From NCBI GenBank assembly GCA_964599475.1, contig CAZRFU010000001.1, positions 33,828-97,827 on the forward strand: 64,000 nucleotides of DNA, read 5' to 3'. The position numbers were made by a program, and so were the translations under genes. This document shows, piece by piece, positions 4,433-27,783 of the stretch; position 1 is the first letter of the stretch, and each line of letters starts with the position of its first letter. Under the pieces are notes generated by a model. It was not told the DNA's origin, made no database searches, and worked only from the letters and a program-made list of their open reading frames with translations. The stretch comes from an uncultured Thermoanaerobaculia bacterium. Lineage in GTDB: Bacteria > Acidobacteriota > Thermoanaerobaculia > Multivoradales > CAZRFU01.

Positions 4433-4873
4433 TCAGAGCAGGATGGTCGTCGCGTTCGCGATCACCCCGATCCCGATCAAGAGGACCCCGAAGCAACCCT
4501 GGGAGGTCTTGACCGCAGGCCCCGAAGGTGGCGGTTGCCGCGTCTCGAAGGCCTCGACGGCAGCCTTGGACTCGGCGAGACCGAGGCCTGTGGCCTCGCG
4601 GTAGCGCTTGATCGCCTCGATCTTGTTGCCTGAGCCCACCAACCGGGCAACTTCCTCCATCAGCACTGGGTCGCCGATCCCGAGCGCGCCCATGCTGGTA
4701 GCGGGTGGGTTCGGCGCCTCGGCAGGCGCAAACTCGGCCGATTCGACCGCGGCCTTCGCCTCGGCGAGGCCGCTGCCCGTCACCTCTCGGTAGGCCTTGA
4801 TCGCCTCGATCTTCCTACCCTCGCGAAGCAATGACTCGATCCGGCGCCGGCCATCGGGAGTGAGGTTCGTCAT
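4433..4873 (-). CDS. Small membrane-anchored protein with two tandem ribosomal L7/L12 C-terminal-like repeats
   Basis: The start is ATG at 4873 (MTNLTPDG...). The two repeats are RKIEAIKAYREVTGSGLAEAKAAVE and NKIEAIKRYREATGLGLAESKAAVE. Both resemble the L7/L12 CTD consensus (KIxVIKxVRxxTGLGLKEAKxLVE). A C-terminal hydrophobic helix (GCFGVLLIGIGVIANATTILL) follows. Confidence 0.5.
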   Translation of the reverse strand: MTNLTPDGRRRIESLLREGRKIEAIKAYREVTGSGLAEAKAAVESAEFAPAEAPNPPATSMGALGIGDPVLMEEVARLVGSGNKIEAIKRYREATGLGLAESKAAVEAFETRQPPPSGPAVKTSQGCFGVLLIGIGVIANATTILL

Positions 4874-4960
4874 CGGGGTGGCGTCTCCTGCGAGAATGGT
4901 AGCAGTTGCGCTGTGCCCCTTCGGCTGACCCCGGGATCGTCTGGGCGCCCGATCGAGTGG

Positions 4961-5872
4961 ATGGCGAGAGAGGATTCGAACATGGTTTCGGCACTTTTCG
5001 ACCCGGCCCGGTGGAGGGCCGTCGAGGGATTCGGGTTTCGCGACATCACCTATCACCGCGCGGTCGACCAGGGGACCGTGCGGATCGCCTTCGACCGGCC
5101 GGAGGTGCGCAATGCGTTTCGGCCTCAAACGGTCGACGAGCTGGCGACCGCACTCGATCACGCCCGGCAGTCGAGCGACGTTGGATGTGTCCTGCTCACC
5201 GGCAACGGCCCTTCACCCAAGGATGGTGGGTGGGCGTTCTGTTCCGGCGGCGACCAGCGCATCCGCGGCGCCGACGGCTACAAGTACGAGGACGCCGGCG
5301 GAGTGGATCCCGCGCGGCTCGGGCGCCTGCACATTCTCGAGTGTCAGCGGCTGATCCGGTTCATGCCCAAAGTGGTGATCGCCGTGGTGCCGGGGTGGGC
5401 CGCCGGTGGGGGGCACAGCCTCCATGTGGTCGCCGATCTGACCCTCGCGAGCCGCGAGCACGCGGTGTTCAAGCAGACCGACGCCGACGTCGCGAGTTTC
5501 GACTCGGGCTACGGGTCGGCCCTGTTGGCTCGCCAGGTGGGGCAGAAGCGCGCGCGGGAGATCTTCTTCCTCGGCTTCGATTACAGCGCCGAGGAGGCGG
5601 TGGCGATGGGCGCCGCCAACGCGGCCGTGCCTCACGCGGAGCTGGAGAAGGTGGCACTCGAGTGGGCGGCGGAGATCAACTCCAAGAGTCCCACGGCGAT
5701 CCGCATGCTCAAGTACGGTTTCAACCTCCCCGACGACGGACTGGTTGGTCAGCAGTTGTTTGCCGGCGAGGCGACCCGGCTGGCCTATGGGACCGAAGAG
5801 GCTCAGGAGGGGCGCGACGCGTTCGTGGAGAAGCGCCCGCGCGACTTCTCGCGCTTTCCCTGGCGCTACTAG
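4961..5872 (+). CDS. menB: 1,4-dihydroxy-2-naphthoyl-CoA synthase (MenB; crotonase family)
   Basis: The DITYHRAVDQGTVRIAFDRPEVRNAFRP block matches MenB, and a crotonase-fold oxyanion region is present (GGDQ...GGG). The start could be 4961 or 4982. Confidence 0.8.
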   Translation: MAREDSNMVSALFDPARWRAVEGFGFRDITYHRAVDQGTVRIAFDRPEVRNAFRPQTVDELATALDHARQSSDVGCVLLTGNGPSPKDGGWAFCSGGDQRIRGADGYKYEDAGGVDPARLGRLHILECQRLIRFMPKVVIAVVPGWAAGGGHSLHVVADLTLASREHAVFKQTDADVASFDSGYGSALLARQVGQKRAREIFFLGFDYSAEEAVAMGAANAAVPHAELEKVALEWAAEINSKSPTAIRMLKYGFNLPDDGLVGQQLFAGEATRLAYGTEEAQEGRDAFVEKRPRDFSRFPWRY

Positions 5873-5955
5873 CAGGCTGCTAGCAGTTCCCCATACACCC
5901 TCCGGTGCACCCCGGCCGATGAAAGCGGGCCGTACCCAGTACCCGGTACCAAACC
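5873..5955. repeat. Composite intergenic repeat: variant core hairpin element plus GTACCC tandem units
   Basis: The sequence is gctagcagttccccatacaccctccggtgcaccccggccgatgaaagc...gtacccagtacccggtacc. It is a divergent copy of the core at 14850 and 22968. Confidence 0.7.
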
Positions 5956-8027: not shown

Positions 8028-8112
8028 TGCCCATGCAGCCCTCCGTGGTGCACCCCGGAGGATGAAAATCCGGTCTTCAGTACCCGGTACCTGGTACCCG
8101 GTACCCATTTTC
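8028..8112. repeat. Composite intergenic repeat: core hairpin element, (GGTACC)n tandem, and CCCATTTTCTGAGCAGG terminus
   Basis: The sequence is ccatgcagccctccgtggtgcaccccggaggatgaaaatc, then tacccggtacctggtacccggtacc, then cattttctgagcagg. Confidence 0.8.
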
Positions 8113-13708: not shown

Positions 13709-14623
13709 ATGAGCCGTGCGCGCACTCTTGCTTTCGGACTCCTCGTGTCGGCGGTGGGCGGACTTGCTCCGGCGACTTTTGCGGTCGGTGAGGGTCGCAT
13801 TCACGGGACCATCAGTGACGAAGAGGGCAACCCGCTCAGCGGAGTCACCATCCAGGTCACTACTCCCGAGCGTCCGACGTTCGAGCTCGAGGAGTCCACG
13901 GACGCCAAGGGTGCGTATGCCTTCACCATCCGGGACGCGTCCCTCATCTACACCTATCGATTCAGCAAGTCGGGGTACCAAACCCTCGAGCATGTAGAGC
14001 GAATCCCCTTGCACACGAACACCAAGCGTGATTTCACGCTGAAGACCGAACGTGCTGGCGGAGCCGCGACCGCGGTCTTCAACGAGGGGGCCGTAGCTGC
14101 GCAGGCGAAGGACTACGCTACCGCCGAGGCCAAGTTCAAAGAGGCCGTGGCTCTCGATCCGGCGCTGGCGCCAGGATGGTCGGCTCTCGCGGCGATCTAC
14201 CTCGAACAGGGCAAGACTGCCGAGGCCGCGGCGATGGCGGACAAGGCGGTGGAGCTTGCTCCCGACGTGGCGCGCCACCAGCACCTGCGCTACGAGGCGT
14301 GGCGCCTAGCCGGCAACGCGGAGAAAGCCGCCGAGGCGAAGGCAGCGTTCGAGAAGCTCGACCCCAAGGGCATGGTGATTCCGCTGGTCAACCAGGGGAT
14401 CGAGGCCTTCAACCAGGGTGACATCCCGGCCGCGACCAAGGCCCTCGAACAGGCAATCGCGCTGGACGACACCAACATCAAGGGCCTGTTCACGCTGGGG
14501 CTGTGCTACGTCAATGCCGGTAACTCGGCCAAGGCGAAGGAGACGTTCGAGAAGTACCTCGCCCTCGCTCCGGCCGACGATCCGGACATGGCCACCGCCA
14601 AGGAGATGGTCTCGTACCTCTAG
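13709..14623 (+). CDS. Secreted protein: carboxypeptidase-regulatory-like domain plus TPR repeats
   Basis: The start is ATG at 13709 with a signal peptide (MSRARTLAFGLLVSAVGGLAPATFA). An Ig-like CarbopepD_reg-type segment follows (GRIHGTISDEEGNPLSGVTIQVT), then Ala-rich TPRs. Confidence 0.5.
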   Translation: MSRARTLAFGLLVSAVGGLAPATFAVGEGRIHGTISDEEGNPLSGVTIQVTTPERPTFELEESTDAKGAYAFTIRDASLIYTYRFSKSGYQTLEHVERIPLHTNTKRDFTLKTERAGGAATAVFNEGAVAAQAKDYATAEAKFKEAVALDPALAPGWSALAAIYLEQGKTAEAAAMADKAVELAPDVARHQHLRYEAWRLAGNAEKAAEAKAAFEKLDPKGMVIPLVNQGIEAFNQGDIPAATKALEQAIALDDTNIKGLFTLGLCYVNAGNSAKAKETFEKYLALAPADDPDMATAKEMVSYL

Positions 14624-14624
14624 G

Positions 14625-15012
14625 CCTAGCAAGCTCGTGGTGCACCCCGGTCTGACGGAAATGGGAACCGGCCGCGGACGGGCACCAAGGTACTGGGTAG
14701 CGGGTACCCGGGTACTGGCCCGGAGCGCCCGCGGCATTTGCTGAGCAGTTCCTCATGCACCCCTCCGTGGTGCACCCCGGAGGATGAGAATCAAGCCCGC
14801 CGTCCGGTCTGGGTTCCGGATCCCTGGTCCCGGGTCCCTGGTCCCGGGTCCCCATTTGCTGAGCAGTTCCCCATGCACCCCTCCGTGGTGCACCCCGGCC
14901 GATGAGAATCAGGTCCCTGATCCCTGATCTCCGGTACCCATTTTCCCAGCAGGCTGCGAGCCCATCTTCCTCGCTTCCGGGAGTACCCGGTACCCGGTAC
15001 ACCCGCTACCCC
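14625..15012. repeat. Large composite repeat cluster: at least two full and two partial core hairpin elements interleaved with tandem units
   Basis: Cores lie at 14734-14810 and 14850-14912 (TTGCTGAGCAGTTCC[C/T]CATGCACCCCTCCGTGGTGCACCCCGG...GATGAGAATCA). Partial cores lie at 14628-14650 and 14937-14961. Tandem units include ggtcccgggtccctggtcccgggtcc and gtacccggtacccggtac. Confidence 0.85.
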
Positions 15013-16509: not shown

Positions 16510-18621
16510 ATGGTCGCCGAAGGGAGTAGCGGGAGACTTCGAGAGCTGGGGCTCCTCAGGCTCTTGGTCGCGCTGCCCTTGGTCGTCGCCGCGATCGCCT
16601 GGGTGATGATGCCGATCGTGTCCTATGACACGGATATCTGGTATCACCTCGCAGATGGGAGGAAGATCGTCCAGACTGGGGAGATTCCCCACACACTGGA
16701 TTTCTCTTTTCTGGCTCAGCGTGAGTGGGTCGACTACTTCTGGGGATTCCAGGCACTCCTCTACACGGTCTTCGATGCGTTCGGTTTCGGAGGCTTGATC
16801 GGTCTTCGCGCCGTGCTGTTCGTCGCCGTGCTGGGCTGCATCACGGCCTTGCTCTGGCCAGCCGGTGTGGTGTGCTGGCGTTCGTGGCTTGCCACCGCGG
16901 CAGTAGTCAGCTGCTACGCCGTGATTCTCGGGCCGAGGTATCACCTCGTGCGCCCGCACACCGTCAGCTATCTCCTGATCGTGGTGGTTCTGTACATCAC
17001 AACTCGTCGGCCCAAGTGGGTATTGGCCCTTCCGCTCGTGGCGCTGGTGTGGGTCAACGTTCATGGGGTCACATTTCCGGTCTTGCTGTTATGCCTGGGG
17101 TCGCTGTTCGCCGACCAGGTGGTCGGGAGAGTGAAGGATCCGGGCGGTTCTCAGCGAACAGAGCCTCTTCTGGCAGTGTTGCTGGGCGCTGCGGCGGTAC
17201 TGGCCACTCCGGCTGGCTCAGCACTGCTCCCGCTTCCTTTTGCGGATTGGCGCTTCGCCGCCGGCTACATCGAGGAGTTGGGCAAGCAGAGCCTGGGTGA
17301 CATCTTCGGTTTGGAATTCGAGGGCCTCGGGCTTTCCCAGGGTTCGGCGCTGACGGTTGTGGGCGCCATGGCGGTCGCTGGGCTGTGGAGGTTGCGCGGT
17401 CGTTGGTTGAGCGGAACTGGCGCGTTGGTTCTCGCGGCAGGCGGTTTGGTGTTGTTCCTGCGGGGGCATCGCTTTGGGGTCGAGTTCTCGCTGCTGCTCT
17501 TGCCCCTGATCAGGGTCAGCCTTGGGGGGGCTGAGAGGTGGACACGGGGAATCGTCACCTGGGTCGTCGCCTTGGTGTGGCTCTCGGGTTGCGCTGCCGT
17601 GTGGAAGGGTACCGAGGCAGGGAGGTGGGCAGGGCCTGTTGCGCCTTTCCGCCTGCCGCAGGGCGCCGTCGAGTACCTCAAGCGGGACCCGCTGCCAGGG
17701 ACGGTCATGAACCCTCCGGCCGTGGGTGGTTACCTCCTGTGGGCGCTGCCGCCGAGGTTCCAGTTTGCGATGGACATGAAGGTGCCCATTGTCTTCACCG
17801 ATCAGGATTTCTTTCTCGCTGATGGGTTCTACTGGCATGGGCCGATCCTCGACCGAGTAATCGCCGAGCACGATCCGACCTACGTGATGCTGCCGCTCAG
17901 CTCGGAGCCTTCCCTGCGTCGACTCCGGCAGCGGGCGCCTGAATATTCGCCGGTGTTCTTCGACGATACCGTTGTACTCTTTGCCGACCTGCAGCAACGC
18001 CCGGGAGCCCGCGTGCTCGAATCCATCGACCCCTATCGGCTCGACAACGGCGAGTCGATCCCCGAGTTCGACGCTGAAACCTCTGTAGTGGTCTCCCGAG
18101 AGCTCAACTATCTGCTGTCGATCCACCCGACCGGCTTGCTGACCAACCAGCTCAAGGCGATTCTGGCCACGCGCGCCGCACGGTTCGAGGAGGCCGAGCG
18201 CGCTGCGCGAGCCGTGATCGCCGTCGTTCCTGGCGGAGTCGCCGGTTGGCTGCTGCTTGGCGATGCTCGATCGGGACTCGGTGAACTGGACCGGGCAATC
18301 GAGGCCTATCGCCATGCAGAGCGGGTCGCGAGTGCTGCGGAGCGGCCGAAGGCCCTGCGGTCGCTCGCCATCGCACTGGCACGGGCGGGCAAGTCGGCTG
18401 AGGCTTACCGCACGATGGTCGAATTCTCCGGTTGGTACAATCCTGAAGTTTCGCTCGACGACTTGGAGCTTCTGGGTGGGCTCGCCGTGGAGCAGGGAGA
18501 TCTGGAGGCTGGGGCCAAGGTGCTGGAGCTGGTTCTGCTTCGAAGCTCGCCCGAGGACCGCAGCCGCGTGGATCGCGTGCGGAAGGTGCTCGCCGACCTT
18601 TCTGCGCTCACGGCCCAGTAG
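16510..18621 (+). CDS. Polytopic membrane protein (GT-C-like) with C-terminal TPR repeats
   Basis: It has at least 10 TM helices with an acidic first loop (YDTDIWYHLADGRKIV). The C-terminal 200 aa or so is TPR-like. This architecture resembles the TMTC/PMT class. Confidence 0.5.
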   Translation: MVAEGSSGRLRELGLLRLLVALPLVVAAIAWVMMPIVSYDTDIWYHLADGRKIVQTGEIPHTLDFSFLAQREWVDYFWGFQALLYTVFDAFGFGGLIGLRAVLFVAVLGCITALLWPAGVVCWRSWLATAAVVSCYAVILGPRYHLVRPHTVSYLLIVVVLYITTRRPKWVLALPLVALVWVNVHGVTFPVLLLCLGSLFADQVVGRVKDPGGSQRTEPLLAVLLGAAAVLATPAGSALLPLPFADWRFAAGYIEELGKQSLGDIFGLEFEGLGLSQGSALTVVGAMAVAGLWRLRGRWLSGTGALVLAAGGLVLFLRGHRFGVEFSLLLLPLIRVSLGGAERWTRGIVTWVVALVWLSGCAAVWKGTEAGRWAGPVAPFRLPQGAVEYLKRDPLPGTVMNPPAVGGYLLWALPPRFQFAMDMKVPIVFTDQDFFLADGFYWHGPILDRVIAEHDPTYVMLPLSSEPSLRRLRQRAPEYSPVFFDDTVVLFADLQQRPGARVLESIDPYRLDNGESIPEFDAETSVVVSRELNYLLSIHPTGLLTNQLKAILATRAARFEEAERAARAVIAVVPGGVAGWLLLGDARSGLGELDRAIEAYRHAERVASAAERPKALRSLAIALARAGKSAEAYRTMVEFSGWYNPEVSLDDLELLGGLAVEQGDLEAGAKVLELVLLRSSPEDRSRVDRVRKVLADLSALTAQ

Positions 18622-18681: not shown

Positions 18682-21318
<2,637 letters not shown>

Positions 21319-21342
21319 GTGGTCAAGTCTCCTTCTCCGGCC

Positions 21343-22305
21343 TCAGCTCACCGTCTCACCCGGCCGGGGAGTGAAGGTGCTGCGCGAAGCGAGCTCGCGC
21401 CACAGGCGGGCTTCGTCGTCCGACACCGTCGTCGGAACCGTGATCCGAAGCTCGGCGAAGAGATCGCCGCGGGCGCCGCGCGGCGTTGGGAAACCCTTCC
21501 CGGCGAGGCGGATACGCCGGCCGCTCGAGGATCCGGGAGGGATCTTGATGGTCACTGTGCCGTCGAGGGTCGGGACCCGCGCCTGGCCGCCGAGCACGGC
21601 CTCCCACGGCGCCACTGGGACCTCGACGCGCAGGTCGTCGCCGTCGAGGGTGAAGGCCGAGCCGTTGGCGAAGTCGATCGACACCAGCAGGTCGCCTCGG
21701 GGGCCGCCGCCGAAGCCTTCGCCTCCCTGGCCGGCGAGACGGATCTTCTGGCCGGGTCGGATGCCCTGAGGAATCTTGACGCGCAGAGTGCGGCGTTCGC
21801 CGGTGTGTGGGTCGGCCAGCTGAATCGAGCGTTCACCCCCGGCCGCGGCTTCCTCGAGCCCGAGGGTGAGCTGGACCTCGTGGTCGGCGCCCCGCGAAAC
21901 CCAGTGGGCGCCGCCGCCGGCTTGCGCGCGAGCGCCGCGACCGAACAAGGCTTCGAAGAAGGAGCTGAAACCCGACCCGCCGAATCCTCCGCCGAAGTCG
22001 GTACCGCCGAATCCACCGCCTCCTCCCTGGAAGCCGCGGAAGATCTCCTCGAAACCCGGGGGCGGTGCGCCGCTGCGTTGGCTTTGATTCCAGGCGGCGC
22101 CGAACTGGTCGTAGCGAGCCCGCTTCTCGGGGTCGCGCAGGACCTCGTAGGCTTCGCCGATCTCCTTGAAGCGGTCCTCGGCGCCCGGAGCGCGGTTGAC
22201 ATCCGGGTGGTACTTGCGCGCCATCTTGCGGTAGACCTTTTGGATCTCCTCCGCATCGGCGCTGCGGTCCACTCCCAGGATCTTGTAGTAGTCCTTGTAT
22301 TCCAC
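21343..22305 (-). CDS. cbpA: DnaJ-family co-chaperone of the CbpA type (J domain, no Zn finger)
   Basis: The J domain is DYYKILGV...KYHPD. A G/F-rich linker and C-terminal substrate-binding domains follow. The CxxCxGxG repeats are absent. Confidence 0.8.
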   Translation of the reverse strand: MEYKDYYKILGVDRSADAEEIQKVYRKMARKYHPDVNRAPGAEDRFKEIGEAYEVLRDPEKRARYDQFGAAWNQSQRSGAPPPGFEEIFRGFQGGGGGFGGTDFGGGFGGSGFSSFFEALFGRGARAQAGGGAHWVSRGADHEVQLTLGLEEAAAGGERSIQLADPHTGERRTLRVKIPQGIRPGQKIRLAGQGGEGFGGGPRGDLLVSIDFANGSAFTLDGDDLRVEVPVAPWEAVLGGQARVPTLDGTVTIKIPPGSSSGRRIRLAGKGFPTPRGARGDLFAELRITVPTTVSDDEARLWRELASRSTFTPRPGETVS

Positions 22306-22425
22306 TGCTCCTCCAGCGCCGCCGCGAGCTCTCCCAGCTCCCCGCAGGCGAAAACATCTTAGTGATGCCCCTGCAGATCTGACAACGCGAGGCGGGGGCG
22401 AAAGATTCCCGATGTCAGGACTATC

Positions 22426-25251
22426 TTAGCCGCGCAGACTCATATCGAGGGGCGAGAAGGAAGGGTGAACGGGGGGCGGGCGGAACAGAGGGCCTCGTCC
22501 CTTGCCAGTTCCCCGTCCCTCTTCCCCCCAAACACAACGGCCGCGCTCATCGCGCGGCCGTTGCCCAATCCGGAGGAGCGGCGAGCTCAGGGAGCGTCGA
22601 AGCCGAACTTCTGGTAGTTCATCCCGATGTACTTCTTCCACTCGTCCGGGACCTCTTCCATTGGGAAGATCGCCTGAACCGGGCAGGCATCGACGCACAG
22701 GCCGCAGTCGATGCATTCCTCGGGATGGATGAAGAGTTGGTTCCAGTCCTCGTTCTTGCCATAGATGCAGTCGACCGGGCAGACATCCACGCAGGATGTG
22801 TCTTTCACGTCGACGCACGGCTCGGCGATGATGTGGGGCATCTCGGGTCCTTTCGTTGGCCAGCGCGAGAACATGCTCGCTCGCTGCGGATTCTAGCAGG
22901 GGGACCAAGGTACCGGGTACCAGGTACCGGGTACCCGTCGGAGCGCCGGAGGCCTCTTCCGAGCGGTTCCCCATGCACCCCTCCGTGGTGCACCCCGGAG
23001 GATGAAAATCAAGCCCGCCGTCCGGTCTCCGTTCCGGCCCGGTCCCGGGTCCCCGGTCCCCGGTACCTCCCGCCCGGGCCTTCAGCCATGCCACAGCGGC
23101 CTCCAGCACCTCGTCGCGGCCGGCAGCGATGCCGGCGCGGGTTGGTGTCACGACGACGTCGGGGATGACTCCGCGTCCGCGGATGTTGCCGTCTGGACCG
23201 TGGGCAGACATCCCGGTGAAGTAGAGGCGATAGCCCGCCGGGAGCCACAGGCCGGTGAAGTTGCCGTTGGTACCGGCAGACGGGCTGCCGACGATGGTGG
23301 CGAGGCGCTGTTCGGCGAACATGGTGAGGAGGGTTTCGGCGTAGCTCAGGGCGTTGTGGTCGGCCAGCACCACGATCGGGGCGCGGAGCCGCGGTTCGAG
23401 CGGCGGCACGGTCCACCGCGAGCATTGCGGAATGCCGGCGCCCGGCCGGTCGCGCTCCGGGATGCAGAACTGGGGACCCGCCAGTGGTCGATCGCTCAGA
23501 TGGCCGAGTTTGGATTCGGAGATCACTGGATACCCGCGCAGGTCGAAGATCACGCCGGTTGCTGCGGCGAGCCTCGGCAGGACTTGCTCCCAGGTGGTGT
23601 CGTCGACCCGCCGCAGGTCGAGCGAGAGCACGCCATCAGCCTCGACCCGCAGGCTCGGCCGTTCGTCGACCAGGAGCTTGCCGAGGCTGCCGGCCGGTCG
23701 AGCGGCAAGCGCGACCGTGCGCCGTGCTCCGTCGATACCCTCCGCCTCGACCTCGACCAGGTGTGGGGCTGAGCGCAGGACCAGGTTCTCGAGGGCACGA
23801 GCACGTCGGTGGGGCTCGGTCGCGCCGGCGGTTCGTGCGAGGGCGTCGAGCAGGGCTTGATCCATCGTCCGCCCGTCGAAGCGAAGGAGCCGATCGCCGA
23901 CTCGCACCTCAGAAACGTCGTCGGCGGTGCGAGTGACGACGACCTCGCCATCGATGTCGGCCACGAGGAAGGGCAGGCGGAACTCGCGGCCACCCTCGGG
24001 CCGCCCGAGCAACGCGTGACCGTCGTTGGTCGCACCGACCAGGCGCTCGAGCGCGTGGGTCGCCTCGCTCGCCGAGCCCGCAACGGCGAGCTCGCGCAAG
24101 GCTCGCCGCAGGACGTCCTCCCACGCGGCGGAACCGGGTGGACGTTCGGGATCGAACTGCTCGAGCACGCCCCAGGCGAGAATCGCCGTGGCCAAGCGGG
24201 TCGACCGATCTGTCGCCGACGGCGCCCACCCTGCTGGGCGTACCGGGATCGGGCCGGCTGCCGGCGCCCCGGTGGCGCAGGTGTCGAGGGGGATGTCGGC
24301 CTCGAGTCCCTCGCCGAGATCGACCGTGGCGCGACGCGCGTCGGTGGTGGGGACGAAGCTGCTGCGAAGCTCGAACGCCGCCATCGGCACGTCGAAAGGT
24401 GCGCCCAGGTAGGTGCGCCGGTGCGAGCCACCCGGGCAGAGCGACGACCCCTGTCCGCTCGGCGAAGCTTCGATCGACAACCCCGGTGCGAGTGGGCCGA
24501 GAGTGGCCATCAGTGCTTCGGCCGGAACCCCTGGGTGGTTCTCCACCTGTTCGACGGCGGCGATGGCTGCGAGATCCCAATCGACCGGCGGATCCGCAAC
24601 CGGGCCGAAGAAACGCAGGATCGAAAGCAGGCGTGCGAGCATCACCAGGCGGGTTTCGCCATCCGCCGAGAGCGGCGCGGCAGATTTATCACCCATGCCG
24701 AGGGCGATCCCAACCTTCGCGTCGAGATCGGCGAGGCCGAAAGTGCCTGCGCCGAAGGCCGCGACCTCGATCAGCACCGCATCAGCGTCGTCGCCGACCT
24801 CGACGACGAGCCCGGCCGGCGCCCATGTGTTGGGCAGTCCGCGGCCGGGACTTTCGACGCGAAACAGGCGTTCGCCGCTGTCCTTGACCGCGGTGGCAAT
24901 CAGCCGAGCGACCCCGCTGTGTTCGGGTTGCGGTGCGGACCAGGTCAGGGCGCGCAGGTGGAGCCTGTGCCCCCGCCACGGTGTGGCGTCGACACGCTGG
25001 ACCAACCGTGCAGCCGGTACCAGAGGTCCCGTCGCCCGCTCGCAACGCAGGACCGCCGCCCACCGGCCCCCCAGCCGCTCGCGCTCGAGTGCGCAGGCGC
25101 CGCCGGTCCGATCGTCGAGTTTCCACGCCTCGAGCGCCGCAGGACGGGAGAAGTCACCACGGATCGCAACCGCTCCCGCCTCCGGCGACTCGGGTGCCGT
25201 GCCGCTACCGAGGGTGGCGATCGCCAGTACCACCGTGCCGAGCCGCGGCAC
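22426..25251 (-). CDS. S41-family C-terminal processing peptidase (tail-specific-protease-like); the 3' end reads through a repeat insertion
   Basis: The probable start is GTG at 25251, immediately after the DUF72 stop, followed by a signal peptide (VPRLGTVVLAIATLGSGTA). S41 blocks are present (DLRGYPVISE, ADHNALSYAETL, SPSAGTNGNF, GVIPDVVV). The homologous part ends near 23070 (AVAWLKARAGG). No in-frame stop occurs until 22426, so the frame continues through the repeat and antisense to fdx. The 3' boundary is uncertain. Confidence 0.55.
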   Translation of the reverse strand: MPRLGTVVLAIATLGSGTAPESPEAGAVAIRGDFSRPAALEAWKLDDRTGGACALERERLGGRWAAVLRCERATGPLVPAARLVQRVDATPWRGHRLHLRALTWSAPQPEHSGVARLIATAVKDSGERLFRVESPGRGLPNTWAPAGLVVEVGDDADAVLIEVAAFGAGTFGLADLDAKVGIALGMGDKSAAPLSADGETRLVMLARLLSILRFFGPVADPPVDWDLAAIAAVEQVENHPGVPAEALMATLGPLAPGLSIEASPSGQGSSLCPGGSHRRTYLGAPFDVPMAAFELRSSFVPTTDARRATVDLGEGLEADIPLDTCATGAPAAGPIPVRPAGWAPSATDRSTRLATAILAWGVLEQFDPERPPGSAAWEDVLRRALRELAVAGSASEATHALERLVGATNDGHALLGRPEGGREFRLPFLVADIDGEVVVTRTADDVSEVRVGDRLLRFDGRTMDQALLDALARTAGATEPHRRARALENLVLRSAPHLVEVEAEGIDGARRTVALAARPAGSLGKLLVDERPSLRVEADGVLSLDLRRVDDTTWEQVLPRLAAATGVIFDLRGYPVISESKLGHLSDRPLAGPQFCIPERDRPGAGIPQCSRWTVPPLEPRLRAPIVVLADHNALSYAETLLTMFAEQRLATIVGSPSAGTNGNFTGLWLPAGYRLYFTGMSAHGPDGNIRGRGVIPDVVVTPTRAGIAAGRDEVLEAAVAWLKARAGGTGDRGPGTGPERRPDGGLDFHPPGCTTEGCMGNRSEEASGAPTGTRYLVPGTLVPLLESAASEHVLALANERTRDAPHHRRAVRRRERHILRGCLPGRLHLWQERGLEPTLHPSRGMHRLRPVRRCLPGSGDLPNGRGPGRVEEVHRDELPEVRLRRSLSSPLLRIGQRPRDERGRCVWGEEGRGTGKGRGPLFRPPPVHPSFSPLDMSLRG
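22523..22561 (-). terminator. Rho-independent-type terminator downstream of the ferredoxin gene
   Basis: A 10-bp perfect stem (ACGGCCGCGC / GCGCGGCCGT) has a 5-nt loop. On the minus strand it is followed by TTGTGTTTGGGGGG. Confidence 0.5.
22587..22841 (-). CDS. 7Fe-type ferredoxin (FdxA-like)
   Basis: The start is ATG at 22841 (MPHIIAEPCVDVKDTSCVDVCPVDCIY...CIDCGLCVDACP). It has the classic [3Fe-4S][4Fe-4S] cysteine spacing. Confidence 0.85.
   Translation of the reverse strand: MPHIIAEPCVDVKDTSCVDVCPVDCIYGKNEDWNQLFIHPEECIDCGLCVDACPVQAIFPMEEVPDEWKKYIGMNYQKFGFDAP
22901..23070. repeat. Composite repeat: (GGTACCN)4, variant linker, core hairpin element, then (GGTCCC/GGTCCCC) units
   Basis: The core at 22968-23032 (ttccccatgcacccctccgtggtgcaccccggaggatgaaaatcaagcccgccgtccggtct) is identical to the copies at 14760 and 14880. 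Confidence 0.85.
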
Positions 25252-25252
25252 T

Positions 25253-25957
25253 TCAGTCGCCGGCCAACTCGACGAAGCGCTGGGCCAGTTTGGGCCCGAT
25301 GCCCCCGTCTTCGTGCTTGAAGAATACGTACGCCTCGGCGAGACCCGCGGCTCGCAGCCGTTCGAGCCAGGCAACCAAGCGTGCCTCGTCGTAGGCTTCG
25401 CGGCGCAGCCGCACATAGGCAAAGCGTGCGGTGACCGCCACCTCGGGTTCGGGTGCGTCGTCGACGTCGGCGGTGCACCAGGAGCACGCGCCGTGGCTGC
25501 GGACCAGCTCGAGCACCGCCGGATCCGACCAGCTCGGATGGCGCATCTCGAGGGCACAGGGCAGGCCGGCCGGCAGGTCGGCGAGGAAGCGCGCGAGGCG
25601 GTCGTCGTCGCGCCTGAGGTTCGGTGGGGTCTGGAACAGGATCGGGCCGAGCTTCGGGCCCAAGGCCTGCGCCTGTTGGCAGAGGTATGCGACGTTGTCG
25701 GCGGTGTCCTTCAAGCGCGCAATGTGGGTGATCTTCTGCGACGCCTTGAGCACGAAGCGAAAGTCGTCCGGCACCTGCGCCGCCCACCCTTCGAGCACCG
25801 ACGTTTTGGGCATGCGGTAGAAGGTGTTGTTGATCTCGACCACTCCGAGGCGTTCGGCGTAGTAGCCGAGCATCTGGTCGGGTTTGATTCGCTCGGGGTA
25901 GAAGGACCCCTTCCATTCGGGGAACGAAAATCCGCTGGTGCCGGCGAAGACCTTCAT
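25253..25957 (-). CDS. DUF72 (YecE/UPF0759) family protein
   Basis: The 234-aa product contains INNTFYRMP and a TIM-barrel-like DUF72 signature. Confidence 0.75.
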   Translation of the reverse strand: MKVFAGTSGFSFPEWKGSFYPERIKPDQMLGYYAERLGVVEINNTFYRMPKTSVLEGWAAQVPDDFRFVLKASQKITHIARLKDTADNVAYLCQQAQALGPKLGPILFQTPPNLRRDDDRLARFLADLPAGLPCALEMRHPSWSDPAVLELVRSHGACSWCTADVDDAPEPEVAVTARFAYVRLRREAYDEARLVAWLERLRAAGLAEAYVFFKHEDGGIGPKLAQRFVELAGD

Positions 25958-27740: not shown

Positions 27741-27782
27741 TGCGGCGACCGATCCATGCTCCGATCCCCGATCCCCGATCCC
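27741..27782. repeat. Short (GATCCCC)3 tandem array
   Basis: The sequence is ccgatccatgctccgatccccgatccccgatccccc, between the carbonic anhydrase start and the end of the isoprenoid operon. Confidence 0.5.
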
Positions 27783-27783
27783 C

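Follow-up and report, generated by a model that had tools for sequence, protein, structure and literature searches.

A peptidase gene without a stop codon of its own at the edge of a dispersed heptamer repeat in an uncultured Thermoanaerobaculia bacterium

Where does the translation of a gene end when its own stop codon is missing? This question is raised by a locus in a stretch of 64,000 nucleotides (hereafter, the window) from an uncultured Thermoanaerobaculia bacterium (contig CAZRFU010000001.1 of GenBank assembly GCA_964599475.1, positions 33,828 to 97,827 of the forward strand), in which the coding sequence of an S41-family peptidase, on the minus strand, runs without interruption into a composite repeat of heptamer arrays and a palindromic core, and then across a ferredoxin gene (fdx). 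It is probable, in our view, that the peptidase of this lineage lost its stop codon exactly where it abuts this dispersed repeat, and that the first in-frame stop in or beyond the repeat ends its translation. The coordinates of the features are collected in Table 1.

The minus-strand open reading frame (ORF) 22426..25557 is a single frame, whose translation includes ...AVAWLKARAGGTGDRGPGTGPERRPDGGLDFHPPGCTTEGCMGN... in the ORF listing. Past the codon GGT at 23067-23065, the sole in-frame stop is the TAA at 22428-22426, in agreement with an earlier note on this DNA, which had described the peptidase frame as lacking a stop and staying open for about 640 nt down to position 22426. The remaining two frames after the junction stop at the TGA 23011-23009 and at the TAG 22895-22893. 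Regarding the other end of the gene, the true start is probably the GTG at 25251 (or 25233) and not position 25557, because the DUF72 gene (25253..25957, Pfam 8e-62) overlaps the first portion of the ORF. The NCBI annotation of the genome has the identical product of 941 aa (P0155).

To locate the end of the peptidase homology, the core (728 residues) was compared exhaustively, by HMMER, with 1.84 billion representative proteins. The core alone retrieved 5938 homologues, whereas a protein search with the low-complexity tail included in the query gave only 2. The 149 best distant homologues (30-41% identity) were then compared, each protein end against the alignment end in the query, resulting in a median offset of 0 residues relative to the GGA codon at 23070-23068, with 143 of them ending between -8 and +12. 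Real additional C-terminal domains, with 228-483 extra residues, are present in three distant homologues (P0089, P0100 and P0142), and the Pfam Peptidase_S41 match stops 27 residues short of AGG. As the homologues end here and the arm of the repeat reaches position 23068, the end of homology coincides with the repeat boundary, just as the earlier note had read it from ...AWLKARAGG, and the usual stop of the family is therefore missing at this place. The coincidence of the family C-terminus with the repeat edge, to one or two codons, is together with the missing stop the non-chance and non-trivial part of this observation. The length of the run-on, 212 codons, is by itself unremarkable in DNA of 67% GC, since, with all positions and frames of the window taken together, about 20% of the starting points are followed by at least 213 codons before the next stop. 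The window also holds an ORF of 929 aa (19573..22362, plus strand), antisense to ClpB and DnaJ, a spurious long ORF of the sort typical of high-GC DNA, which illustrates how little the length of an ORF says by itself here.

As seen by DNA comparison, the junction GCCCGGGCGGGAGGTACC (GCGGGAGGTACC) is identical in the window and in the assemblies L001, L095, L096, L097, L098 and L104, which derive from different samples and from two sub-lineages about 6% apart. Since the junction is the same across independent assemblies, the absent stop is not a local sequencing error, and every assembly of the lineage at hand lacks a stop at this position. A frameshift or sequencing error, offered earlier as an explanation, thus fails for the loss of the stop and keeps its place only for the length of the tail, where one heptamer separates the window from L096. 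An upstream frameshift masking the stop was likewise rejected, as the frame follows the family homology as far as the junction and is the same in every assembly. The loss of the native stop, at the contact of gene and repeat, would date back to the ancestor shared by the sampled strains, and its cause may have been an insertion, an expansion of the array or a point mutation such as TGA to GGA at 23070-23068; this GGA is one base from TGA, and another array of the window is preceded by TGA CGA GGTACC. The proposal that a repeat at the 3' end had created the extension is therefore upheld by the boundary coincidence and by the stop-less state of all assemblies, while the insertion that it invoked is one candidate cause beside array expansion and point mutation.

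What follows the junction is polymorphic. In the protein databases, the core belongs to one close cluster only, composed of P0155, P0001, P0003, P0153 and P0154, and no homologue lies in the interval from 41% to 93% identity among the 5938 retrieved. P0155, from the 143-kb NCBI contig, is the window ORF as annotated, with a tail of 212 aa past ARAGG. P0001 and P0003 (JGI; L001 and L095; 815 aa and a fragment of 353 aa) have a tail of 86 aa, while P0153 (JGI; L096) and P0154 (Logan; L097 and L098) both measure 749 aa, with tails of 20 aa that are unlike each other in sequence. The number of array units after GGTACC is three in the window and in L097/L098, four in L096 and five in L001/L095/L104. 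The arrays of the window and L096 are exactly one CGGGACC unit (7 nt) apart, and L096 stops at the TGA of the repeat core, so that this one-heptamer difference alone turns a tail of 20 aa into one of 212 aa. In L001, L095 and L104, the core is degenerate and has extra indels, and the frame stops within the first part of fdx, at the counterpart of TGA 22807-22805; this arrangement, with its tail of 86 aa, is reproduced in the three samples. Moreover, L097/L098 differ from the window by one nucleotide in the 2184-nt core, yet they carry an L001-like variant of the repeat core, and either the repeat turns over far faster than the gene or these short contigs follow ambiguous assembly paths. The tail peptides in the window frame include AGGTGDR, GPGTGPER and RPDGGLDFHPPGCTTEGCMGNR, and the tail in the L096 frame reads ...GPGTRDRAGTETGRRA. 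Neither the frame nor the sequence nor the length of the tail is conserved between strains.

We infer that this polymorphism arises by slipped-strand changes in the number of array units. Because 7 nt is not a multiple of three, the gain or loss of one unit shifts the frame, and a slippage of one unit would then give a new frame and a tail of 20, 86 or 212 residues, with indels in the repeat core further diversifying the tails among close strains. The heptamer arrays contain zero stop codons in any frame, and the stops borne by the repeat are the core TGA, in one frame, and the TAG of the CTGCTAG module, in another; the peptidase frame of the window is the third and meets neither. Since the loss of the native stop, termination would depend on stops inside or beyond the repeat, and the window frame, missing both of the former, would proceed across fdx in an alternative frame.

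The peptidase core itself is matched by PF03572 (Peptidase_S41) over ORF residues 721-803, with a score of 30.5 bits (cut-off 24). A profile of 40 family members matches the structures of CPAF (3dja, 3dor) and of CtpA/CtpB with E = 6e-13 to 5e-5; the matches to NCBIfam models fall far under their cut-offs, and the peptidase is therefore not an equivalog of CPAF or CtpB. All 20 invariant columns of the 40-member alignment, in which the window protein is included, are kept in the window protein. Among the invariant residues, S636 (in LSYAE), H412 (in NDGH), D410 and E639 are putative catalytic residues, by analogy with the His-Ser-Glu triad of CPAF. Between the window and L001, the core shows 63 synonymous and 43 non-synonymous differences, with a synonymous rate (dS) of 0.111, a non-synonymous rate (dN) of 0.028 and a dN/dS of 0.25, and the non-synonymous share is well under the neutral expectation (binomial p = 1.3e-11). 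Internal stops or frameshifts were not found in the core. As judged from these sequences, the core is intact, under purifying selection and not an old pseudogene, and since this selection acts between two sub-lineages that both lack the stop, the peptidase has been selected for while without a stop of its own. Gene decay, another explanation offered in the earlier note, is thereby not supported over the history of the lineage; a very recent decay in the window strain, the only one in which Cys16 has changed to Ser, has a small probability and is weighed below. As the enzyme core is under selection, the tail would be tolerated or trimmed.

Several points weigh against this account. An empty site at the locus was seen in none of the compared assemblies, and a peptidase-based search of genome and metagenome contigs for relatives in which the site is empty or the stop preserved found nothing, so that several candidate events would account for the loss of the stop. 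The dN/dS of the peptidase stands at the upper end of the local range (0.02-0.25 in the neighbouring genes). Furthermore, the 212-aa state occurs in one assembly only, and the contigs of L096, L097 and L098 end within the repeat, so their tails may reflect assembly paths. These last points also favour an alternative that we regard as unlikely, although it deserves serious weight: that the 212-aa extension is an artefact of assembly or consensus, the true array having four units, as in L096, and a tail of 20 aa ending at the core TGA, with the loss of the stop still being real. Exactly one 7-nt unit of a tandem array separates the window from L096, and L096-L098, L101-L103 and L105 all break inside the repeat, indicating that short-read assemblers struggle with it. 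However, differences of whole units are what genuine slipped-strand variation yields, counts of three, four and five are found in independent assemblies, with the L001-type count in three samples, and the L096 contig ends 3 nt past its stop, being no better supported than the window. The question of the three units decides between a tail of 20 and one of 212 aa only, and the loss of the stop is unaffected by it.

It is rather improbable that the gene is an incipient pseudogene in the window strain, with the long tail and the loss of a lipobox-like cysteine as two recent hits. The sole core difference from L097/L098 in 2184 nt is TGC to AGC in codon 16 (nt 25206), which removes the Cys of an A-T-L-G-C lipobox-like motif kept in L001, L096, L097 and L098, and the longest tail is found in this same genome; the enzyme of the window strain, to go by this motif, may no longer be lipidated. 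Nevertheless, an upstream A-I-A motif could permit cleavage by signal peptidase I, two changes do not amount to a statistical test, and the lack of internal stops and frameshifts, the presence of all invariant residues and the purifying selection between stop-less sub-lineages are contrary to decay.

Turning to the tail, it has next to no chance of being a genuine functional C-terminal domain. Homologues with real additional domains do exist, as mentioned above for P0089, P0100 and P0142, but between strains that are nearly identical the tail changes in frame, sequence and length, which effectively refutes this reading. No Pfam match was found in the run-on tail, which overlaps a strongly conserved gene in another frame. 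In the peptidase frame, the GC content at third codon positions (GC3) stays at 0.7-0.9 as far as about 23100 and falls to 0.33-0.35 over fdx, compared with 0.82-0.85 in the fdx frame; the extension has therefore no coding signal of its own. Under the preferred explanation, with the stop lost at the repeat edge, the tail would be a non-conserved by-product, rich in Arg, Gly and Pro.

The ferredoxin gene had been described as antisense to the run-on. This is not the case: both genes are on the minus strand, and the run-on passes through fdx in a frame other than that of the ferredoxin. The 84-aa ferredoxin is recorded from the JGI and Logan assemblies and not from the NCBI contig, although the DUF72 and PhoH proteins of the same contig are on record; for this reason, the ferredoxin probably lost its gene call in the deposited annotation to the 941-aa run-on ORF. 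The consequence is a deposited 941-aa 'peptidase' with apparently no separate call for the highly conserved ferredoxin gene that it overlaps. Upstream of fdx, the edge of the repeat may provide or adjoin a putative promoter, to judge from an extended -10-like motif. The fdx gene and its 5' region (22590-22900 against 8300-8666 of L001) are near-identical, with one synonymous change in fdx and one more change upstream, while the flanking dS between the window and L001 is 0.11-0.54, namely 0.11-0.35 on the peptidase side and 0.53-0.54 on the DnaJ/ClpB/PhoH side. This pattern points to a boundary of recombination in the vicinity of the repeat and fdx, or to an unusually strong constraint on fdx.

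The position of the run-on stop, 22428, about 105 nt past the terminator-like hairpin of fdx, brings in a regulatory reading that we hold to be very improbable. According to it, transcripts would end in the repeat or at the fdx hairpin before any stop, and the product would be tagged through transfer-messenger RNA (tmRNA) and degraded unless rescue is limiting, as for ArfA, with the heptamer number as a phase-variable switch between stable and unstable forms. Transcripts ended at the hairpin would indeed lack a stop in the window frame, the simple repeats of the arrays shift the frame and have been seen to vary in copy number, and precedents are given by ArfA (PMC3989581) and by the same idea for enhC-QMITE2 of Coxiella (PMC5896051). 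However, no terminator is predicted in the repeat, RNA folding of the repeat is no better than in shuffled sequences (z = -1.5 for the window and -1.3 for L001), the tails look arbitrary and out of frame, and such variation is expected in a tandem array without selection. A consensus terminator scan of 22200-23300 found none, the fdx hairpin at 22535-22563 included. A contingency switch, in which the unit number would select either a short-tailed stable enzyme or a non-stop, tmRNA-tagged protease that is off, with ribosomes passing over the fdx start in the wrong frame, is likewise a long shot; if true, a repeat in the position of a 3' untranslated region would control an S41 protease, and perhaps fdx as well, in a heritable and reversible way.

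The composite repeat extends from about 22893 to 23068 and, in the sense direction, has a heptamer array, a spacer, the palindromic core, a second array and the CTGCTAG module. Its inverted-repeat arms (22908-22935 and 23041-23068) are 28 nt long and 82% complementary, which is partly automatic, as the heptamer arrays are built on the palindromic GGTACC. The near-palindrome at 22980-23001 is CCTCCGTGGTGCACCCCGGAGG (CCTCCGGGGTGCACCACGGAGG in the sense direction) and recurs at 8044, 14766 and 14881. Further copies of the core lie at about 5893-5930, 8030-8075, 14745-14790 and 14860-14905, the last two in tandem composites, so at least five core copies and about 12 period-7 array loci, with arrays of 2-6 copies, are present within 64 kb. 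Moreover, the 13-mer GGTACCGGGTACC, with at most two mismatches, occurs 54 times in the window against 0.7 expected. The sense strand at the junction, GGGGACCGGGGACCCGGGACCGGG, is a canonical G-quadruplex motif, with four tracts of three or more G at 23061-23038 of the minus strand (motif only).

The arrays are habitually located at gene ends. They start 3-14 nt past the stop codons of six other long ORFs with high GC3 (Table 1), and the G-rich strand (GGGNACC) is the sense strand in five of these six, the exception being 346/352; the peptidase array is a few bases closer, at the place of the stop. Elsewhere, the ORF 4835..5872 has its TAG stop (5870-5872) within the module CTACTAGCAG / CTGCTAGCAG of another composite copy (5865-5886), and it may be a second gene taking its stop from this repeat family.

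Table 1. Features of the peptidase, repeat and ferredoxin region, and heptamer arrays next to other stop codons, in window coordinates
Feature	Positions	Strand	Description
S41-family peptidase core	23065..25251	(-)	729 codons, GTG 25251 to GGT 23067-23065; C-terminus ...AVAWLKARAGG; without its own stop codon
Stop-less junction GCG GGA GGT ACC	23062..23073	(-)	last peptidase codons straight into the heptamer array
Peptidase-proximal heptamer array	23038..23068	(-)	sense GGTACC GGGGACC GGGGACC CGGGACC; Tandem Repeats Finder period 7
Repeat core	22965..23037	(-)	22-nt near-palindrome and TGA 23011-23009 (out of frame in the window, stop in L096)
fdx-proximal heptamer array	22908..22935	(-)	(GGTACCN)x4; second arm of the 28-nt inverted repeat
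Extended -10-like motif TGCTAGAAT	22890..22898	(-)	about 50 nt upstream of the fdx start, within the CTGCTAG module; identical in L001
Ferredoxin gene fdx	22587..22841	(-)	ATG 22841 to TGA 22589-22587; 84 aa, 4Fe-4S dicluster, Pfam Fer4_7 and Fer4
Terminator-like hairpin	22535..22563	(-)	12-nt perfect arms, 5-nt loop, then TGTGTTTGG; stem conserved in L001
Run-on part of the ORF	22426..23064	(-)	212 codons and TAA 22428-22426; repeat, fdx in an alternative frame, fdx 3' region
ORF-stop/array pairs	346/352, 5967/5950, 15016/15001, 47820/47836, 59262/59269, 60293/60277		units GGTACCN, GGGACCC, GGTCCCN

Regarding its classification, the element combines inverted arms like those of a miniature inverted-repeat transposable element (MITE) with a palindrome like that of the repetitive extragenic palindromes (REP), and it is placed in neither family. 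No target-site duplication was found, as the flanks GGGGGACCA and CCCGCCCGG have no direct repeat, and no transposase was noticed within the 64-kb window, where no dedicated test for a REP-associated tyrosine transposase (RAYT, a Y1 transposase) was made. In 596 Gb of genome contigs, the 17-nt core TCCGTGGTGCACCCCGG gave only single matches in unrelated taxa, in roughly the number estimated by chance (about 70); a degenerate pattern of the fdx N-terminus had no match in metagenome contigs, and the genome and metagenome scans gave no additional relatives. Rfam found only tRNAs in the whole window and, in this region, sub-threshold miRNA-like matches on the hairpin at 22447-22530. This hairpin, an imperfect palindrome of 84 nt located 3' of the terminator-like hairpin of fdx, aligns poorly with L001.

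Further repeats, and differences from L001, were noted along the window. At 14620-15001, 3' of a PhoH-like gene, three composite units stand in tandem (array, CATTTGCTGAGCAG, core, array and so on), and L001 has a copy related to this composite at 14099-14194. The segment 16397-18678, 2.3 kb with a membrane/TPR-like ORF of 703 aa (16510..18621), is absent from L001, as is the segment 27218-27762, of about 545 nt, whose end adjoins an array of three CCGATCC units at 27761-27783.

Events of related kinds are known. Phase-variable contingency loci shift the frame by a change of unit number in a tandem repeat that is not a multiple of three, and the peptidase array resembles them, as its unit number shifts the frame between strains; unlike them, it follows the last functional codon, the catalytic core is never disrupted, and no on/off switching was found. 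Rickettsia palindromic elements are inserted internally and in frame, and are kept as conserved peptide segments. MITEs can also yield in-frame fusions (reviewed in PMC10969869). As in these cases, a dispersed palindromic repeat is translated as part of an ORF while the host gene stays functional; unlike the Rickettsia elements, the repeat described here replaces the end of the gene, and its translated frame is not conserved.

The closest known case is enhC of Coxiella burnetii, whose last 33 aa come, in strain Dugway, from a QMITE2 copy and in which an indel in another strain restores a stop before the element; many MITE copies overlapping gene 3' ends are listed for Coxiella, and the possibility of non-stop mRNA has been raised (PMC5896051). 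In both systems, the last residues of a functional gene come from a small non-autonomous repeat that overlaps its 3' terminus, with indels setting the stop. The differences are that no known strain has a stop before the element here, that a 7-nt array shifts the frame and that one variant crosses the next gene; in addition, the two element families share no sequence relationship, and the host here is high in GC and uncultured. For E. coli arfA, it has been shown experimentally that a message can lack an in-frame stop through a 3' hairpin or transcript end, which links the fate of the protein to trans-translation (PMC3989581); by analogy, non-stop would be a possibility for the peptidase, with the difference that stop codons are present further downstream in its DNA.

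As for the units themselves, heptameric G-rich repeats have been described in Xanthomonas (GGGAATC), in Nostoc (GGGGAYT) and as the short tandemly repeated repetitive (STRR) sequences of cyanobacteria, typically with about four copies, intergenic, G-rich in the sense strand, concentrated within 50 bp of a stop codon and some overlapping it (PMC4692102). The arrays of the window share with the Xanthomonas and Nostoc heptamers the tandem 7-nt units just past stops, the G-rich sense strand and, at the junction, a G-quadruplex motif; they differ in their units (GGTACCN, GGGNACC and GGTCCCN) and in being often inverted arms around a palindromic core, resembling a MITE/REP composite. A lineage outside Xanthomonas and cyanobacteria is thus added to those with heptamer arrays directly on gene ends. 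More generally, in high-GC genomes with stop-free repeats, a single lost stop or repeat unit can create very long run-on ORFs. The peptidase is a natural example of how a functional gene can do without its own stop and still be maintained by selection, with a hypervariable repeat lending the stops; the event is of a known kind, with no new mechanism, and what is new is a further example in a lineage that may be called unsampled, because no homologue falls between 41% and 93% identity.

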